A DNA stretch of 64,000 nt from an uncultured Chloroflexota bacterium (GTDB lineage: Bacteria > Chloroflexota > UBA6077 > SHYK01), in the NCBI GenBank assembly GCA_964417895.1, contig CAYQJS010000004.1, positions 51,724 to 115,723 on the forward strand, written 5' to 3'. The first letter of the stretch is position 1. Every line of letters starts with the position of its first letter. The position numbers and the translations under genes were made by a program. The notes below the pieces were generated by a model. It ran no database searches and was not told where the DNA came from. It worked only from the letters and a program-made list of their open reading frames with translations. This document shows positions 2,147 through 10,394 of this stretch, piece after piece.

Positions 2147-3295
2147 GTGATTCTAAACAAAGCGAACAAGCCGCTAATCCGGTGGACGTCTGGCCCGGGG
2201 ACCGTGAGAGCTGACGCTAGAGAGGACGTCAAGACCATCGCCGCCTCGAGAGAAGACGAGATCCATCAAGTCGACTTCTCAGCCCCGCACCTCGTGATCC
2301 TCGGTGCTGGGGCGAGCCGGGCGGCATTTCCTCATGGCGACCGGAATGGGCAACAACTTCCTCTAATGGCCGACTTTACTCAGATCGTGCCGGTCTCAGA
2401 TCTGTTGGACTCTCATGGAATCGTTCACAGGGGGCAAAATCTGGAAGATATCTACACCCATCTGTGCGGCACTCCCGAACTCGACGAGGTCTGCGCGGAG
2501 CTGGAACGGATCGTCTCCTCCTACTTCTCTTCACTCGCACTCCCGGAAACACCGTCGCTCTATGACCACCTGATACTCTCGCTCAGAGGTAAGGATGTAA
2601 TCGCGACATCCAACTGGGATCCGTTTCTCATCCGGGCAGCCAGACGCAGTGGGTTGGCCTCTGGCGAGATTCCGCTCATGCTATTCCTTCATGGCAATGT
2701 GCTCGCGGGCTTCTGTCAGCGCGACCTTGTTTTCGGTGTCAGAGGTACGCGCTGCTCGACCTGTGGTCAGATCTTCTCACCGTCCAAGCTGCTATACCCT
2801 GTCGGGAACAAGGATTACAATGCGGACCCCATGATTGCCAATGCCTGGCGCGCTGTACAGGAAGCGTTACGTCGAACCTTCATGGTTACCGTATTCGGAT
2901 ACAGCGCACCGCAGTCCGACGCCGCCGCAATACGCCTCTTCCTCGATGCATGGGGGGACGGTGCGGCTCGACAAATTGAGCACTTTGAGATCATCGACAT
3001 AAGGCCGCCCGAGGACCTCCGCAAACAGTGGGCCCCGTTCATTCACACCCATCACTACTCCGTGCTCGCCTCGCCCTACGATTCTTGGATGTTCAAGCAT
3101 CCTCGCCGTACAGGCGAAGCCTACCGTAACCAGTACTTAAAAGGGATGTTCATCGACGACAATCCGATTCCCCGAGAGGCTTCGTTCGAAACTCTGACGC
3201 ATTTCTACGCGCCCTTGCTCGAGGTCGAACGCGCAACGCCATCGGTTAGTGAATCTGAAACTCCGAACCCGCCCGGTGGCGATTCTACACAGTAG
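2147..3295 (+). CDS. SIR2-like (SIR2_2 / DHS-like NAD-binding fold) domain protein with extra C-terminal region
   Basis: VILGAGASRA (Rossmann GAG), ATSNWDPF (cf. TxNYD), FLHGNV (catalytic-His position), CSTCGQ, VFGYSAPQSD (GYSxxD); visibly lower GC than flanks. Confidence 0.6.
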   Translation: MILNKANKPLIRWTSGPGTVRADAREDVKTIAASREDEIHQVDFSAPHLVILGAGASRAAFPHGDRNGQQLPLMADFTQIVPVSDLLDSHGIVHRGQNLEDIYTHLCGTPELDEVCAELERIVSSYFSSLALPETPSLYDHLILSLRGKDVIATSNWDPFLIRAARRSGLASGEIPLMLFLHGNVLAGFCQRDLVFGVRGTRCSTCGQIFSPSKLLYPVGNKDYNADPMIANAWRAVQEALRRTFMVTVFGYSAPQSDAAAIRLFLDAWGDGAARQIEHFEIIDIRPPEDLRKQWAPFIHTHHYSVLASPYDSWMFKHPRRTGEAYRNQYLKGMFIDDNPIPREASFETLTHFYAPLLEVERATPSVSESETPNPPGGDSTQ

Positions 3296-3659: not shown

Positions 3660-4679
3660 CTACGCCCATATGTCACAACTCGGGAGGGCCCTCCGCAGAC
3701 GATCAAGCCCTGCGTCGGTGATCGCCGTGTCGACGAGGGCAAGCATCTCGAGCTGAGTCAGCCCGCGCAACGCTTCCAGCCCCGCGTCGGTGATCGCGGT
3801 ACCGCTGAGAGTAAGCTTCCGGAGCTGAGTCAGCGCGCGCAGCGATGCAAGCCCACCATCGGTGATCGCCGTGTCGTTGAGTTCAAGCGACTGGAGGTGA
3901 GTCAGCCCGCGCAACACTTTCAGCCCCGCGTCGGTAATGGCGGTACCGTTGAGGTGAAGGCTCTTGAGCTGAGTCAGTCCGCTCAATGCTGCCAGCCCTG
4001 CGTCGGCGATTGCGGTATCGTTGAGCCACAGTGTCTCCAGCTGCCTAAACGCGCGCAACGCTGCCAGCTCCGTCCCGGTGATCGCGGTCTCCCATAGACC
4101 AAGCTCCTCGAGCTGGGTCAACCCGCTCAACGCCGCCAGCCCCGCGCCGGTGATTTTTGTATGGCCGATGGAAAGCGTCCTCAGTTGCGTCAACCCGCGC
4201 AAGGCTTCGAGCCCGACGTCGGTGATCGCCGTGTAGGCGAGCTCAAGCGACTTGAGTTGAGTCAGCCCACTCAATGCCGTAACGATTGCGTCAGTTACCT
4301 CACTGTCTTGCGAGGAGTACGCGGGGCTCAGGCCTTTCCCAGACGAGAATTCCAAACCATAAAGATCATTCGGGCCTAGCGCCACGAGGGGCGAAGGATC
4401 ACCGAGACGATCTGGGTATATCCGCAGAGTCACCAGAGCATTGGCACTGACAGTGACGTCACCCCTGGCATCCCGCCATTCAGACGCATAAGTCTGCCCC
4501 TTACCCTCATTGGCAATGGCGTACTCACCGATCGACCGGTCCCTGGGGAAGCGGATCGTTCGCGTGGATAGCCGGGCAAGATCGGCCAAAGTGCGGCCAA
4601 CCAGTTGCGACGAGGCGAGCCGTGCGAGCGCGGACTGGCGCGCTGGCACTAGGCTCTGCGTAGGCTCCTCGGGCTTCAT
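3660..4679 (-). CDS. leucine-rich repeat (LRR) protein, no signal peptide
   Basis: About 9 tandem 24-aa repeats LxGLTQLxxLxLxxTxITDAGLxAL after a ~135 aa unique N-terminal region. Confidence 0.85.
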   Translation of the reverse strand: MKPEEPTQSLVPARQSALARLASSQLVGRTLADLARLSTRTIRFPRDRSIGEYAIANEGKGQTYASEWRDARGDVTVSANALVTLRIYPDRLGDPSPLVALGPNDLYGLEFSSGKGLSPAYSSQDSEVTDAIVTALSGLTQLKSLELAYTAITDVGLEALRGLTQLRTLSIGHTKITGAGLAALSGLTQLEELGLWETAITGTELAALRAFRQLETLWLNDTAIADAGLAALSGLTQLKSLHLNGTAITDAGLKVLRGLTHLQSLELNDTAITDGGLASLRALTQLRKLTLSGTAITDAGLEALRGLTQLEMLALVDTAITDAGLDRLRRALPSCDIWA

Positions 4680-5461
4680 TGCGCACCCACCAGTGTGTCC
4701 AGCATTTCCAGCCGGCTTCTTGTCGACGCGATATTCTCGTCGAGGGTTGCCGCCAACTCCTCTAGAATGTCTCGGCCTTCGACCATTCCGTGCTCAGCTT
4801 TGATTTTCAACTGGTAGAAGTCTGAGGCTTCGATCTCGGCGATCTCGCTGGCTATGGCCTTCAACCTGGTCGTTACCAGTGCGACCTTGCGGATAGCCCG
4901 GATGAGTTCATCAGCGGTCCCAGCTCCGGTTATCGCCTCCGGCCTCGCCTCCCAGTCGCGAAGAATAGCCGCGAGCCGTGCCTCATCCCCACTCTCATAG
5001 GCCTGATTAGCTTCAGTCATGACTCGCACACGCTCGGCGCGATCGATGTCCGTCCCCAAGTCGGGGTGGACTTTCTTTGCTACCTCCCTGTAGATCTTCC
5101 TGAGTTGCTCAGACGGCGTTTCTCCTTCTTTCGCGTCGGGCGGAACAGGCTCCCCAACACTCTCTGCGCTCTCCTCTGCCCGCTGCCGAGTCCGTTGAGC
5201 TTCCTCGCGAGCGGCTTTGTCTCCCGGGGCCAGTTCGGCGAGAGCTTCGGCTACTCGGGCTTCTAATTCGTCGAGTTCGGCGTACCGGCGCCCAACAACA
5301 CGCAGGTAGGCCCGTTGGAACCGGTACATCTCAATGAGAAGAGTCGCTAGGACGGTCTCCTGGTCAGCCAAGTCGGTCTCAAGTGCATTGAGGTCGGCGA
5401 GCTTTCTGGCCAGCTCCTCCTCTTCCGGTGTGACCCACGGGATCATAGACATGACCAGCAC
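4676..5461 (-). CDS. J-domain (DnaJ-like) protein with coiled-coil flanks
   Basis: KIYREVAKKVHPDLGTDIDRAERVRVMTEANQAYE (HPD motif); stop overlaps the LRR gene start (ATGA, 4676-4679). Confidence 0.8.
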   Translation of the reverse strand: MLVMSMIPWVTPEEEELARKLADLNALETDLADQETVLATLLIEMYRFQRAYLRVVGRRYAELDELEARVAEALAELAPGDKAAREEAQRTRQRAEESAESVGEPVPPDAKEGETPSEQLRKIYREVAKKVHPDLGTDIDRAERVRVMTEANQAYESGDEARLAAILRDWEARPEAITGAGTADELIRAIRKVALVTTRLKAIASEIAEIEASDFYQLKIKAEHGMVEGRDILEELAATLDENIASTRSRLEMLDTLVGAQ

Positions 5462-5859: not shown

Positions 5860-6508
5860 ATGGCGCAGATTGGCGCCCGGGCCCCGACCGCTCCGCCGCC
5901 GGCTGTGCCGGAGCAGGGGCCGTGGCTGCGGCGCGCGCTCGCCTGGTTCCCGCTTCTCCACCCCTTCCCGTCGCTGGTGGTGGCGGCCACGGGCGGCGGG
6001 TTCGCAGCCGTGGCCAGCCCACGTCCCCTCGCACCAGACCACGCTCTTTTCTTGGTCGACGCTGGGGGGAGTTGCCATCGGCAGCTGGATGGGCCTAACC
6101 GGTCGGCGCGCTGCTTGCCCTGGCGCTGCATCTCGCGAACGCGTTGCCCGACGACGAGCCTGACCGCGAGGCGAGCGCCGGTAGCCTGGTTCAATTCCTG
6201 GGGCGACGAGGCTCGCTCGTGATCCTCTTCCTCTCCTTCGGCCTGGCGCTGATTTGCCGCCTGGCCTACATCGACTCGCTCAAGCACCAGAGCTACGCGG
6301 GCTGGCCATCCTCCTCGGAGGCACCATCGGCCTGGCGAGCCGACCCGCTACTGACTGCGTCGCCTTTCCCTTCTTGGCCGTAGGCAGTGCACCCCTCGCC
6401 ATCGACGTGTGGCCACGCTCCTCGCCTAGCTCCGGTCATGGTGGCCGGGGGCACCGAACGCCATTGCGGGATCGTGTACCGTGGCCCGGAAACCCTGGGC
6501 CGCATTAG
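5860..6508 (+). pseudogene. possible UbiA-like prenyltransferase, broken over three frames
   Basis: LLHPFPSLVVAATGGGFAAVA (frame 1), LALALHLANALPDDEPDREA (NxxxDxxxD-like, frame 3 from 6099), AILLGGTIGLA..FPFLAVGSAPLAI (frame 2); no intact ORF. Confidence 0.3.
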
Positions 6509-7311
6509 CTGGCCCCTGCTCCCGGTGACGAATCAGAAAGACGCGTCAGGTCCTTCACCAGGGTGGCGAACGCCGACCGAACCGTCGGCGCCATTCCAGT
6601 CTTATGGTCGAACAGATCGAACGCTTCCTGCAGATAACCGGCAGCCCTAACCAGATAGTCAGGGTCGCTCGGTAGGTAAGGATCGGAAGGCACGCGATGA
6701 TAGCGGTGCAGCGGGTTCTGACAATGCTGAAGGTTGTAGCGCTCAACGTGCTGCCACGTGTTGTGAACAGCCGAGCTGAACGGCACGTAGGCAAAAGTAT
6801 AGAGATCCTCGCAGCCAGCCTGCTCCGCCATCTTGAGGGTGCTGACGCCCGCCCAGCTTCCCACGTTGACTTCCGTGAGGAAGCCGAATCTTTGCGAGTT
6901 CAGCCAGGCTTCGCCCGCCTCGATTATCGGATCGGCGGCGGCATCGTCGCCGCGTTCTGTCAAGAGTCTCTTGCGGTGCTCAATCGCGAGCTTCTGTTGG
7001 CCGAGCGCGTACGCGATGAACTTACGGGATCTATCCAGCGGGTCTTCGAAGATCCAGGCCAGGTTGATCAGATTGTCGACCATGCTTCTGAGGACCAACG
7101 GGGCGATATGCCCATTCCAGATCGGAGGGGCGAGGGCAAACCGCGTCACAAGCGTCACTTGTCTCGCCAGAAGCCCGCCCACCACTTCGTGGATCTCACC
7201 GACGGACAGATCCAGCTGCCATCCTCGCCAGCGATCATCCAACTCCCCCAGTGCCGTGTCCACGTATCGGTTCACGACCACGCCGAGGGCTTCCACGTTC
7301 GGTTCAGTCAC
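6505..7311 (-). CDS. hypothetical helical protein (family not confidently recognised; possibly DUF5677-like)
   Basis: 268 aa ORF; overlaps the upstream gene by 8 nt, which implies an operon; lower GC. Confidence 0.6.
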   Translation of the reverse strand: MTEPNVEALGVVVNRYVDTALGELDDRWRGWQLDLSVGEIHEVVGGLLARQVTLVTRFALAPPIWNGHIAPLVLRSMVDNLINLAWIFEDPLDRSRKFIAYALGQQKLAIEHRKRLLTERGDDAAADPIIEAGEAWLNSQRFGFLTEVNVGSWAGVSTLKMAEQAGCEDLYTFAYVPFSSAVHNTWQHVERYNLQHCQNPLHRYHRVPSDPYLPSDPDYLVRAAGYLQEAFDLFDHKTGMAPTVRSAFATLVKDLTRLSDSSPGAGAS

Positions 7312-8074
7312 CTTGTGTCTCGATCTCGCATGGTTGAAGCTCTAGACCTCGGTTCCAGAAATACCGAGACCAGGCTTCAGAGGCACTCGTTGCCCTCTCG
7401 CCTATTAGCATGCTTACGGTCGCGCGCACCGCTGATGCCACGCGTCTCGATACTTCAGTCCGCGGGTAGTTCTGGACCTCTGGGAACCTCGCCAGGGATA
7501 CCGTCGGGGCGACTACCAAGGTTCCGCTAACGAAACCGAGGTATACAGCGTTCGCCTGCGCCTGCAGCGCGGGCAAACTAGTCCTATCAAACAGCGCGTC
7601 CAAGATTATTCGCAGGTGAGCCAAACCGGCGGAGACTCCCTCCTCATTAAGAATGTGCGTGGTTAGGAAGCGGAGTGGACACTCGGGGTAATAGCTCAGG
7701 AGCGGCGCCAAGGCCTCAAGCAGGGGCCCGAGGTCTCCGGTCCAGCATAGGTGCTCAACGATCCGCGTCTGCTGCGCGTCGTCAAGAATGGAGTACTCGC
7801 TCAGAAAAGCGAACCAGCGCTCACCCGGCGACCCCGTCGAGTCACGGGCCGCCGTCGCCAGCGCGAGCGCGAGGGCGGCACCTTTAGCCCAGCCGTGCCG
7901 GTCGTTCAGGGTTGCCAGCCAGAGCATCTCCGGGAGAATCTGATCGACCCATTTGACCTCCGTAAGCGGCAAGGCATCTACCAACGGTGGGGTGAATCGG
8001 CTCCCCTGCTGACGATGATCAGCCAGCACACTCCGCCGACGCGCTCTACTCACGTGGCCAACGTGTTCTTCCAC
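7304..8074 (-). CDS. hypothetical protein, first gene of a two-gene operon
   Basis: 256 aa ORF, no recognisable motif; 8 nt overlap with 6505-7311. Confidence 0.55.
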   Translation of the reverse strand: MEEHVGHVSRARRRSVLADHRQQGSRFTPPLVDALPLTEVKWVDQILPEMLWLATLNDRHGWAKGAALALALATAARDSTGSPGERWFAFLSEYSILDDAQQTRIVEHLCWTGDLGPLLEALAPLLSYYPECPLRFLTTHILNEEGVSAGLAHLRIILDALFDRTSLPALQAQANAVYLGFVSGTLVVAPTVSLARFPEVQNYPRTEVSRRVASAVRATVSMLIGERATSASEAWSRYFWNRGLELQPCEIETQGD

Positions 8075-8240
8075 TATGGAGGCTCCTCCGGACGACTGCC
8101 GAGCAATCTCGGTCGCCTGTTGCGCGCGCGACGGGCGGTGTGCCCACCGCTATTTGGCCGTCGTGCTTGCTGCTTGGCGCGTCCAGAGTGACGTATTAGG
8201 CCGGCCCAAAAAGGGGCCAAGCGATCCAGAGGAGCGCCAT

Positions 8241-8540
8241 ATGTCAAGCGCGGCCATCGTACGAGCCGGCAGTAAACTGAGCAAGTCAGACCAAGCGCTC
8301 TACGCCTTCCAGGCCGAGAAGGAGCGGCGTAGCGGCTCGATGCCCACCGTCCAGAGCTACTCGCGCCTGCTCCAGCAATTCTTCGGCCTGGTGGGAACGA
8401 CGCCTGACCGAGTCACGAGCCCGGACACCTTCTGCTGAGCGCACGGGATCGGGCTCGGGCAAGCGGCCTCGTTCGTCACGATCGGCGCCTGGCTCACCTG
8501 CCTCTCGCCCTTCCACAGTTTCCTGATCCGCATGGGCTGA
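8241..8540 (+). pseudogene. tyrosine recombinase/integrase, N-terminal SAM-like domain remnant with in-frame stop
   Basis: SD agaggag + ATG 8241; ...MPTVQSYSRLLQQFFGLVGTTPDRVTSPDTFC*AHGIGLGQAASFVTIGAWLTCLSPFHSFLIRMG*; internal TGA at 8436; catalytic domain absent. Confidence 0.5.
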
Positions 8541-8616: not shown

Positions 8617-10332
8617 TCACGCCTTGACGTCCCACTCGTGGGCGTTCCAGCCGTGGGTGCCGCGGGACGTCCGGGCCACGACGTGCAGCACTCGCTGGTT
8701 CACCAGGATAGGCTCGATGGTGTAGAAGATCCCCATGAGGAGCACCTGGTCGGCGATGTGGGTGATGATCTCCGAGGCGATGGCGACGCGGTCCTGGCGG
8801 GCTACCGTGACATAGTACCGATCGATGAGCGCGTCGAACTCCGGGTTCGCATAGCGCGAGATGTTCGACCCCGTGTAGTTGGACTCCTGCCGCGGTGACT
8901 GCGTGCTGTGGAGGTTGCTCAGCGCCCGAAGCTGGTTCGGTCGCTGCGTGAGCTGGAACGCCGGGAAGCTCGTTACCCATTCCGCGTCCGATAGCCGCTG
9001 CGTCGGCACGATCATCGGCTCCACCGCGACACCAGCCTTCTGCCAGTAATCGGCAATGGAGAAAAGGAGCTTACGCCGCAAGTCGTCGCCGGCGTTGGCG
9101 CGCACCTCCAGCGAGAGCTTGCGGTTCGCGGCATCCACGAAGCTCCCGTCCTGGCCTCTCGTGTAACCGAGGCCTTCGATGATCTGCGTCGCCCGCCGCA
9201 CATCGAACTCGTACTTCGCTACGAGGGGGTCGATCTCCGCGAACTCGGGCTCCGTGGGGCTCATGTAACTGTGGGCCACAGAAGTGAGGCCGGCCATGAA
9301 CGTGTTCACCATCTCCTGGCGGTCCATGGCATGAAGCAGAGCGCGGCGGAACTGGGGATCGGTCACCAACACGGGGCTCGGCGTGAGGAACTGCGGCCAC
9401 AGCTGGATCCACGTGTACGGAGCAGCTTCCACCCGCCCTTCGCGCCATCGCTCCTGGACCTGCGTCGCCTCTTCGACCGAAAGGCCCCTCCCCATCGTGA
9501 AGTCCACGGCGCCAGCGAGGATGCTCGCCACGAGCGTGTTGGAGTCAGCGAGGAAGCGGATCTCAACCTCGTCGATCCTGGGTCGCCCCAGCGCGTAGCG
9601 ATCGTTCGCCTCTACGACCAGGTGGCTACCGCGCTCCCAGGCCTTCAGCTTGAACGGGCCTGTGCCCACGAACTCGTGGCTCCAGTGAGGCAGCTCGACG
9701 TAGCCGGCCTTGTTCTCCATGTAGGCCCGCTCGAGAAGGTGCTTTGGCTGCGGCATGCCGAGCCCCGGCGAGAACAGCGCGTCGGCCCCGATGTAGGGCA
9801 CCCTCCACCGGGCGATCACCGTGTGGGCGTCCACCGCCTCCACGCCCTCCAGGTTCTGATACGCCCGGTCGCGGAAAACACCCACATCGCGGTCCTGAAC
9901 GACCTGGGCTGTGAACACCAGGTCGTCTGCCGTAAACGCGGCGCCGTCGTGCCACTGGCTGTTGGGCCTGATCCTCCAGGTCGTCTCCATTCGGCCGTCA
10001 GGAAATACTTTCCAGAGACCGTTCTCGAGGCTTGGTATCGCCTCGGCCAGTCTGGGCGCGAGGGCCGCGCCCTTGTCCAGGGTGCTGAGCCCGGCGTGGA
10101 CGAGCTCTTCGAGGGCCTCCGAACCGGGCGGTGTGTACGCGCCCGCGGAGCTGATCTGGTAGTTCAGGGCGAACGGGTCTCCCAGGATCGCCGCGGTCAC
10201 GCGCTTCGGCGCCGATGGCCGGGTGACCTGCGCGTTGTCGCTCGGGGTCCGCGGGCCTTGCGGCGCGGCGCAGCCGGCCACGACGAGCGCCAGGACGAGG
10301 CTAAAGGAACGGAGTAGGTTGGCGGTGCTCAC
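8617..10332 (-). CDS. ABC transporter substrate-binding lipoprotein (family 5, peptide/nickel type)
   Basis: GTG 10332 preceded by ggaggtg; signal peptide with lipobox LVVAGC; family-5 SBP length and composition; the track start at 10359 lies inside a heptamer array. Confidence 0.85.
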   Translation of the reverse strand: MSTANLLRSFSLVLALVVAGCAAPQGPRTPSDNAQVTRPSAPKRVTAAILGDPFALNYQISSAGAYTPPGSEALEELVHAGLSTLDKGAALAPRLAEAIPSLENGLWKVFPDGRMETTWRIRPNSQWHDGAAFTADDLVFTAQVVQDRDVGVFRDRAYQNLEGVEAVDAHTVIARWRVPYIGADALFSPGLGMPQPKHLLERAYMENKAGYVELPHWSHEFVGTGPFKLKAWERGSHLVVEANDRYALGRPRIDEVEIRFLADSNTLVASILAGAVDFTMGRGLSVEEATQVQERWREGRVEAAPYTWIQLWPQFLTPSPVLVTDPQFRRALLHAMDRQEMVNTFMAGLTSVAHSYMSPTEPEFAEIDPLVAKYEFDVRRATQIIEGLGYTRGQDGSFVDAANRKLSLEVRANAGDDLRRKLLFSIADYWQKAGVAVEPMIVPTQRLSDAEWVTSFPAFQLTQRPNQLRALSNLHSTQSPRQESNYTGSNISRYANPEFDALIDRYYVTVARQDRVAIASEIITHIADQVLLMGIFYTIEPILVNQRVLHVVARTSRGTHGWNAHEWDVKA

Positions 10333-10352
10333 GCGCTCACCTCCGAAAACGA

Positions 10353-10394
10353 GTCCCAAGTCCCAGGTCCCAAGTCCCAGGTCCCAGGTACCGA
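10353..10394. repeat. tandem heptamer array, 6 x GTCCCAG/GTCCCAA
   Basis: gtcccaa gtcccag gtcccaa gtcccag gtcccag gtaccga, between the amidohydrolase stop and the SBP start. Confidence 0.9.

Follow-up and report, generated by a model that had tools for sequence, protein, structure and literature searches.

A stand-alone protein with a predicted SIR2 fold represents a large, horizontally moving family without a curated profile

The window analyzed here is a stretch of 64,000 nucleotides from an uncultured Chloroflexota bacterium (assembly GCA_964417895.1, contig CAYQJS010000004.1, positions 51,724 to 115,723 of the forward strand). Our attention was directed to one complete open reading frame (ORF) within it (Table 1), which an initial annotation, made from the sequence alone, had described as a SIR2-like protein and a candidate NAD+-depleting defence effector. 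Both the reading of the DNA and the homologues identify this ORF as real and intact: Among 8,000 scored candidates, more than 4,218 relatives, counted as clusters at 90% identity, were found at E ≤ 1e-3, the top non-self relative reaching E = 6e-134 at 61% identity, and an exhaustive HMMER scan of representatives clustered at 50% identity returned 1,542 clusters at E ≤ 1e-3, of which 470 reach E ≤ 1e-30. Because relatives are this numerous and the motif residues are invariant or nearly invariant in 83 diverse members, the ORF is not a chance product of DNA rich in guanine and cytosine (GC). The typical family length is about 336 amino acids (aa), with about 90% of the members consisting of nothing but this bare domain, and all named relatives, including RefSeq entries on Legionella and Vibrio plasmids, are labelled ‘hypothetical protein’. 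As set out below, the protein is best read as a compact single-domain enzyme with a predicted SIR2 fold, belonging to a large family for which no curated profile exists.

Table 1. Elements of the SIR2-fold ORF and genes in its surroundings, in positions of the window.
Feature	Position (nt)	Strand	Remarks
SIR2-fold protein ORF, complete	2147..3295	+	382 aa from GTG 2147, stop included
Alternative GTG start (Val20)	2204..2206	+	yields 363 aa; relatives begin ~11 residues further in
Strand 1 and dinucleotide-binding loop, H48-LVIL-G53-A-G-A-S57-RAAFPHG-D65	2288..2341	+	strand E48-52 in model; GAGAS motif G53-A-G-A-S57 at nt 2303-2317
Helical module after strand 1, residues ~71-145	2357..2581	+	helices 77-145 in model
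T154-S-N156-W-D158, presumed nicotinamide-ribose-binding Asn/Asp motif (TxNxD)	2606..2620	+	N156, W157, D158 invariant in 83/83 relatives
F180-L-H182-G-N184, end of strand 3 with the presumed catalytic His	2684..2698	+	H182, G183 invariant in 83/83; strand E177-180; L181-H-G183 at nt 2687-2695
Zinc-ribbon-like module C190-x2-D193 ... C203-x2-C206, then L-L-Y-P-V-x2-K222-x-Y224	2705..2818	+	hairpin 187-190 / 195-198
Strand 4 and loop, F250-G-Y-S-A-P-Q-S-D258 (GYS-x4-D)	2894..2920	+	G251, P255, D258 invariant; strand E246-250
Family-specific conserved C-terminal block	3029..3139	+	W295, F-I-H300-T-H302-H303-Y, S313-W, H318-P-R-R-T-G-E324-A
Variable, disordered tail, residues ~364-382	3236..3292	+	pLDDT < 50 for 370-382; no conservation
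S-adenosylmethionine (SAM) methyltransferase	1220-2029	+ (same as target)	117 nt upstream of the target; 66-68% GC
Leucine-rich-repeat (LRR) protein	3660-4679	-	downstream of the target; six tandem 72-nt units (3706-4281)
261-aa protein with weak DnaJ J-domain match (E = 4e-4)	4676-5461	-	end overlapped 4 nt by the LRR start
DUF5677/DitA-like ORF	6505-7311	-	C-terminal half (307-443) of PADLOC DitA (PDLC03826); Pfam DUF5677 E = 1e-19
DitA-like ORF	7304-8074	-	N-terminal half (3-236) of PADLOC DitA (PDLC03826)

The assignment to the SIR2 fold is carried by two structural models predicted with AlphaFold2 (AF2). For the window protein, a model built from 24 sequences reached a predicted local distance difference test score (pLDDT) of 80 and a predicted template modelling score (pTM) of 0.80, and a Foldseek search of this model against the Protein Data Bank (PDB) gave 16 matches at E ≤ 1e-3. 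The best 20 matches all belong to the SIR2 family, after which only noise follows: They include CobB (2.4e-6), Sir2 of A. fulgidus, Sir2A of P. falciparum, Sir2Tm, SIRT6 and E. coli SIR2-HerA (1.2e-5), with ThsA (about 2e-3) and DSR2 (2e-3 to 1e-2) lower down. Among the viral predicted structures of BFVD, the best two matches are giant-virus sirtuins. To check that the fold call is independent of a single model, we also modelled a Leptospirillum homologue (P0011; 51 sequences, pLDDT 89.6, pTM 0.89), for which 53 PDB matches at E ≤ 1e-3 were obtained; the 50 listed all belong to the SIR2 family, with canonical sirtuins (CobB, Sir2Af1/2, Sir2Tm, PfSir2A, SIRT3/5/6) on ranks 1–48 and ThsA on ranks 49–50. 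Every significant match listed for the two models is hence a SIR2-family structure, and the SIR2-like nature proposed in the initial annotation is borne out at the level of the predicted fold, an assignment that we consider solid. The TM-scores are moderate, amounting to 0.35–0.46 when normalized to the query and reaching 0.56 when normalized to the target, which fits a protein that is about 100 residues larger than CobB.

In both models, DSSP assigns six main strands of a parallel sheet and an additional ribbon hairpin, the model of the Leptospirillum homologue containing two further 2-residue bridges. Strand 1 (48–52) leads into the GAGAS loop and is succeeded by the helical module (~71–145) and by strand 2 (151–154), which ends in TxN156-W-D158; strand 3 (177–180) ends in L-H182-G and is followed by the hairpin (187–190 / 195–198) and a loop, together carrying C190, D193, C203 and C206. 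A long helix then connects to strand 4 (246–250) with the GYS motif, strand 5 (279–283), strand 6 (304–307) and three C-terminal helices that extend to residue ~363. As far as the models can tell, this order of elements is the sirtuin order.

The motifs located at these structural positions are highly conserved in a sample of 83 diverse relatives with pairwise identities of 34–94% (median 47%). Invariant throughout this sample are H48, G53, A54, G55, E100, D140, N156, W157, D158, L161, P176, H182, G183, K222, Y224, W234, G251, P255, D258, W295, P319, R320, R321 and E361, and every one of these residues is present in the window protein; S57 of the GAGAS motif is found in 80 of the 83. The series of motifs reported at first holds exactly for GAGxS, TxN(W/Y)D, LHG and CxxC, the last being C203-S-T-C206 with C190 preceding it, while the alleged ‘GYSxxD’ in fact reads GYS-x4-D. 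The candidate catalytic Asn and His, whose variation among homologues would have spoken against a SIR2-like enzyme, are conserved without exception, as is D158; on the basis of motif order and modelled fold, N156, D158 and H182 are presumed to be equivalent to the catalytic residues of sirtuins. The sole oddity of the window protein is Ser155, a position occupied by Phe in 82 of 83 relatives. Less well conserved among the parts of the core is the helical module (mean top-residue frequency 0.54), which is placed where sirtuins carry their variable helical ‘small domain’.

The segment directly after the presumed catalytic His resembles a zinc ribbon. C190, C203 and C206 each occur in 82 of 83 relatives, and position 193 is filled by D in 50, H in 11, C in 7 and G in 13 of them (Gly 16%). 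About 20 weak matches to assorted Zn-ribbon Pfam models were obtained among the 83 members (E about 2e-4 to 0.2). Judged from sequence, the pattern C190/193/C203/C206 is what one would expect if, in a CxxC...CxxC zinc ribbon of the sirtuin type, one ligand position had shifted between different metal-binding residues, and we regard it as a putative Zn site.

Beyond the GYSAPQSD motif, ~124 residues follow, for which the initial annotation had proposed a motif-less C-terminal domain of ~130 aa that might act as a sensor. This proposal is not supported: Residues 259–310 comprise the Rossmann strands 5 and 6, residues 295–331 are conserved like the catalytic core, and variability is confined to the last ~20 residues. 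The mean top-residue frequency amounts to 0.69 over 295–331, compared to 0.71 for the GAGAS block and 0.70 for the block from TxNWD to LHG. There is no variation at W295, P319, R320 and R321, a single one of the 83 relatives lacks H303, and the motifs of this block (W295, FIHTHHY, HPRRTGEA) are the most distinctive ones of the family; the model of the window protein shows a pLDDT of 76–79 over residues 291–310 and of 90–92 over 311–330. With a conservation equal to that of the active site, a fast-evolving sensor domain is unsupported, and it is more probable that the block contributes to the surroundings of the active site, for example as a second-substrate or trigger-binding site or as a second metal site. 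About 10% of the cluster representatives carry unrelated additional domains of 100–190 residues at either end, which are missing in the window protein. No Pfam match was obtained for the accessory domains of ten such longer members; in the pairs P0127/P0152 and P0184/P0172 (the latter with 43% identity), one and the same accessory domain is N-terminal in one member and C-terminal in the other, and beyond this variability these domains offer no functional clue.

At the level of sequence models, a placement of the protein in SIR2 was not achieved. Pfam-A, NCBIfam and PADLOC gave no match to the window protein at E ≤ 1, and none of the 83 relatives, scanned singly, matches SIR2 (PF02146) or SIR2_2 (PF13289) at E ≤ 10; at this same threshold PADLOC returned neither a consistent defence model nor a match to its AbiH model for the 83 relatives. 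The Pfam model of AbiH (PF14253) matches one of the 83 (E = 1.4e-4), whereas the window protein and the other 82 show no match at E ≤ 10. The matching member is not among the ten members tested, nine of which are from viral contigs, and its lone match is a lead to distant kinship and not a sign of membership. Moreover, the family profile found no sirtuin among all PDB sequences and produced chance matches only, such as 3C protease at E = 0.01. In profile–profile comparisons with hhalign, the probabilities were 1% for E. coli CobB alone, 8% for a Vibrio SIR2_2 protein alone and 17% for a 121-sequence PF13289 profile (the Vibrio SIR2_2 protein and 120 relatives), in which the GAGAS motif alone was aligned confidently; none of these values is significant. 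The profile tools used here do not reach as far as this family. As PADLOC is current to 2023 and Pfam to 2025, newer candidate lists may already include it.

Which start codon the ORF uses is uncertain from the sequence: the frame offers no start codon other than GTG 2147 and GTG 2204 ahead of the conserved N-terminus, the N-termini of the relatives align near ORF residue 31, and residues 1–27 have a pLDDT < 50 in the AF2 model. The database entry for the same gene (P0001, 309 aa) begins at Met74 (codon 2366–2368), a residue within the motif L-P-L-M-x-D-F that is invariant in alignment A1 and at least 90% conserved in alignment A3. This start is probably a miscall because strand 1 and the GAGAS motif would be lost. 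Several other cluster representatives also begin at the Met74 position, and the internal Met seems to attract gene callers. In about five of 80 genome loci (L027, L041, L043, L047, L056), the reading frame is interrupted despite a full-length tblastn match, which may reflect pseudogenes or else errors in the assembly of metagenome-assembled genomes.

The family is patchily distributed and mobile. With one genome considered per species, the gene is present in 477 of 185,579 species (0.26%), and the carriers include bacteria (Acidobacteriota, Pseudomonadota, Nitrospirota, Cyanobacteriota, Planctomycetota, Chloroflexota, Bacteroidota), among them members of the candidate phyla radiation (CPR; Saccharibacteria, Doudnabacteria, Roizmanbacteria), and archaea (Methanolinea, Odinarchaeota). 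With a median of 47–49%, the similarity between archaeal and bacterial copies is on a par with that among bacterial copies, which argues for horizontal transfer. Copies reside on plasmids of Legionella, Vibrio and Stenotrophomonas, and a Leptospirillum copy is found in a region resembling a conjugative element. No copy was detected in 50,697 GenBank phage genomes; 15 of 2.9 million IMG/VR contigs carry a family member.

A fixed partner is lacking across the relatives. In 94 non-redundant loci, ORFs were called and the ~1,600 neighbour ORFs clustered all-against-all: No cluster extends beyond a handful of loci, so that no conserved neighbour exists in this set and the gene stands alone, as the initial annotation had it. 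Searches with Pfam and PADLOC of 259 flanking proteins from ~90 loci (134 immediate neighbours and 125 next-but-one) identified no family in more than three proteins, and no small conserved flanking ORF was found within 700 nt. The commonest flanking families are serine recombinases, tyrosine integrases and components of restriction–modification (R-M) systems of the Eco57I/MmeI type and of type I, next to the MTES_1575 endonuclease, Fic/SoFic, Schlafen-AlbA_2 (PDC-S02), YhcG, Lon-like proteases, reverse transcriptases and PemK toxins. On the L. pneumophila Lens plasmid pLPL, the homologue has umuDC on one side and a type I-F CRISPR-Cas locus on the other, and on pOCN014 of V. coralliilyticus it is located among a SIR2_2 protein, a SLATT protein, the ‘mobile mystery’ proteins A/B and McrBC. 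The pOCN014 neighbour is a bona fide SIR2_2 protein of the PF13289 family (L104 1983-2903) that is overlapped by a large hypothetical protein and lies 5 kb from the homologue, which places two different SIR2-fold genes in one defence island. In qualitative terms, we see here an accessory gene that belongs to the mobilome, stands alone and is often, though not in every locus, found beside defence genes.

The surroundings of the gene in the window conform to this picture. As initially noted, no partner gene is adjacent, and no HerA, TIR, SLOG, Argonaute or STAND gene is present in these surroundings. A position at the edge of an island had likewise been suggested, and the composition supports it: The target forms the left margin of a low-GC stretch that is itself patchy, with 56–58% GC exactly over the target compared to ~65% in the window, and most genes up to ~8.0 kb have ~59–61% GC, except for a stretch of 64–72% at ~5.4–6.6 kb. 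The upstream SAM methyltransferase was considered as a partner and rejected on account of its native-like GC content and because no methyltransferase recurs beside the homologues. Downstream, the genes for the LRR protein and the J-domain-like protein form an apparent two-gene operon beside the target, and 3–5 kb away, within the same low-GC stretch, two DitA-like ORFs overlap by 8 nt and look like a split or frameshifted defence-candidate gene. We further observed that two SBP_bac_5 solute-binding-protein paralogues (6-341 on the plus strand, 8617-10359 on the minus strand) face each other with their 3′ ends across this stretch, and that their last codons form a 38-nt inverted repeat (298-335 / 8626-8663, 82% complementary), which could mark an insertion or rearrangement between the paralogues. 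Around the target, we found no integrase, no direct repeats flanking it and, within 45 kb, no tRNA, and a scan for promoters and terminators gave nothing informative. The ORF at 8076-8438 was considered as an N-terminal integrase stub and dropped since searches against Pfam, PDB and plasmids gave no match to it.

To place the family among known systems, we compared it to the groups with which it shares fold, motifs or gene organization. By fold, it is nearest to the canonical sirtuins (CobB, Sir2-Af1/Af2, Sir2Tm of T. maritima, Sir2A, human SIRT5/SIRT6), which are its best structural matches (E 2e-7 to 1e-5, probability 1.0, target TM 0.45–0.56) and which share with it the six main Rossmann strands, the Cys-rich ribbon directly after the catalytic His and the succession of GAGxS, helical module, TxNxD, xHG, Zn ribbon and G-x-S strand. 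In contrast to them, the family has a putative Zn site of three Cys and Asp/His/Cys (Gly in 16%) instead of four Cys, the motifs TFNWD, LLYPV and GYS-x4-D where sirtuins have TQNID, FGE and GTS, a length greater by ~100 residues, a conserved C-terminal block with HTHHY and HPRR, a patchy and horizontally transferred distribution and no match to PF02146.

By motif spelling and genomic lifestyle, the nearest group consists of the SIR2_2 defence NADases, here represented by ThsA, DSR1/DSR2, SIR2-HerA/Nezha, SIR2-APAZ of prokaryotic Argonaute (pAgo) systems and Avs5. They share the fold (SIR2-HerA 1e-5, ThsA/DSR2 2e-4 to 1e-2, query TM up to 0.46), the mobile and defence contexts and the spelling TxN[YW]D and GY[SG], as seen in the Vibrio SIR2_2 protein; the family differs from them in that it matches neither PF13289 nor a PADLOC model, is accompanied by no HerA, TIR/ThsB, SLOG, pAgo or STAND partner and no fused sensor, and has a putative Zn-ribbon remnant and six main strands. 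Immune SIR2_2 proteins (‘sirims’) are described as seven-stranded and Zn-free, whereas regulatory sirtuins are described as six-stranded and Zn-bearing (10.1101/2024.09.18.613514; PMC12700824). The likeness to the SIR2_2 defence NADases that had been proposed for the window protein holds for the spelling of the motifs, whereas the six main strands and the putative Zn ribbon look more like a canonical sirtuin. Our literature search found no description of an antiphage sirtuin that bears a Zn module.

By gene organization, the family is nearest to AbiH, which with about 346 aa is of similar size and is likewise encoded by a stand-alone single SIR2-like gene; in contrast, PF14253 is matched neither by the window protein nor by 82 of its 83 relatives, and we place the kinship between AbiH and the family no closer than the shared fold. 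AbiH of Lactococcus is a stand-alone SIR2-like abortive-infection protein on mobile elements whose phage resistance is proven and whose mechanism is unknown (10.1101/2024.09.18.613514; PMC13064643). A further stand-alone SIR2 fold is provided by FAM118A/B (SIRanc), vertebrate SIR2_2 proteins with weak basal NAD processing that are activated by assembly into filaments or with a partner (PMC12700824), so that FAM118B illustrates how a SIR2 enzyme without a partner can be inactive until assembly. Unlike the family, FAM118A/B belong to the SIR2_2 clade, are Zn-free, seven-stranded and vertebrate-specific, and they do not occur among the best 50 Foldseek matches listed. Because the sequence-model test failed for canonical sirtuins, SIR2_2 and AbiH alike, we filed the window protein under none of the three; the most fitting description is that of a separate SIR2-fold lineage captured by no curated profile library.

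With regard to function, we tentatively favour a latent, NAD+-consuming, single-gene effector of conflict or abortive infection. NAD+-depleting SIR2 proteins have precedents in ThsA, DSR2 and SIR2-HerA. If fold and invariant residues are a guide, NAD+ would be bound across the GAGAS loop and T-x-N156-x-D158, and His182 would assist in the cleavage of the nicotinamide–ribosyl bond. The putative zinc ribbon (Cys190, Asp193, Cys203, Cys206) and the His/Arg-rich C-terminal block would be located near the active-site cleft, where they might bind the trigger or a second substrate. The gene travels alone and horizontally by way of plasmids, conjugative elements and genomic islands, and a ligand derived from an invader, or self-assembly, might switch the enzyme on, whereupon NAD+ would be consumed by hydrolysis or ADP-ribosyl transfer. 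Several observations weigh against this proposal. The six main strands and the putative Zn ribbon constitute the architecture of a canonical deacylating sirtuin, and canonical sirtuins come first in the Foldseek ranking of both models; no sequence-level tie of the window protein to SIR2, SIR2_2 or AbiH could be demonstrated; and for a sensor engaged in an arms race, a uniform length combined with ~47% identity between domains of life represents unusually little divergence. Moreover, the evidence from neighbourhoods is qualitative, and it includes settings of a different kind: On a Stenotrophomonas megaplasmid the copy is found among metal-resistance genes (ars, cad, cop), and in two diverged syntenic genomes (L004 7995-9026, L037 9908-11014) the homologue is located between nuoB and nuoC, where the tight junctions suggest co-transcription with the nuo genes.

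The structural part of these objections is what one would expect of a two-substrate sirtuin, that is, an NAD+-dependent deacylase or ADP-ribosyltransferase for which NAD+ is a co-substrate that is not depleted and which may still serve in conflict. Its target, be it a protein lysine, a nucleic acid or a small molecule, would be accommodated where the Rossmann domain and the putative zinc ribbon enclose a cleft. The lead of canonical deacylases in both PDB searches points in this direction, as do the six main strands and the strongly conserved, putative Zn-ribbon remnant, since six strands and a Zn ribbon are treated as canonical hallmarks (PMC12700824; 10.1101/2024.09.18.613514). K222, Y224 and the C-terminal H-P-R-R block furthermore resemble a second-substrate site, the strong conservation of the small domain suggests a cleft ligand other than NAD+, and the very high overall conservation suggests an invariant target. 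We consider this explanation a serious rival, though a somewhat less likely one: PF02146 is matched by none of the 83 members even with the threshold set at E ≤ 10, the FGE motif of sirtuins is lacking, TxNWD and GYS-x4-D are nearer to the SIR2_2 spelling (TTNYD and IGYG in Vibrio) than to TQNID and GTS, and the sporadic distribution on horizontally moved plasmids and islands is unlike that of the housekeeping CobB.

The nuo loci lend themselves to yet another explanation, which we judge to be quite improbable, namely that the protein is an accessory metabolic or regulatory enzyme of NAD(H) homeostasis that spreads horizontally without a role in conflict and, for example, tunes respiration. 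The tightly joined copies in the nuo operons and the Stenotrophomonas copy among ars, cad and cop genes would agree with such a role, and so would the lack of a partner resembling an antitoxin, given that the gene is tolerated alone. However, the nuo location accounts for two of ~90 non-redundant loci, and at these the homologues are 57.5% identical compared to 63–89% for the flanking proteins, which means that they evolve faster than their nuo neighbours; elsewhere, the gene is accompanied by R-M, recombinase, Fic, Schlafen, reverse transcriptase and toxin genes and by CRISPR and McrBC islands, and merely 0.26% of species possess it. Finally, the failure of sequence profiles to recognize the protein as SIR2 would suit a catalytically dead scaffold or a sensor binding NAD or ADP-ribose (ADPR) with unlinked partners, the least likely reading and in our view a far-fetched one, as none of the residues expected for catalysis varies in the 83 relatives, which represent many bacterial phyla as well as archaea, and no conserved partner is encoded nearby.

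SIR2-fold NAD+ consumers are among the commonest prokaryotic immune effectors and have relatives in animals. Within this superfamily, the family described here straddles the split between sirtuins and sirims, with the architecture of the former and partly the distribution of the latter. More speculatively, it might constitute a fourth lineage of the sirtuin superfamily beside SIR2, SIR2_2/SIRim and SirTM, which would have retained the ancestral architecture of six strands and Zn ribbon, adopted an immune lifestyle and spread horizontally through bacteria, CPR and archaea as an autonomous one-protein sensor and effector; the Zn ribbon and the His/Arg block would then recognize an invader molecule or a second substrate, for instance a nucleic acid, and thereby elicit NAD+ cleavage or ADP-ribosylation. 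We regard this scenario as unlikely on present evidence. Should the gene serve in defence, as we tentatively propose, it would represent a particularly compact system of one gene whose carriers include archaea and CPR bacteria, would blur the divide between sirtuins and sirims and would provide a small model for how an NADase without a partner is kept silent. Should it instead encode a two-substrate sirtuin, it would point to an unknown NAD+-dependent modification on mobile elements. With either outcome, a fold assignment together with testable catalytic residues would be gained for thousands of ‘hypothetical proteins’ in a family that is large, unannotated and experimentally tractable, yet part of a well-known effector superfamily.

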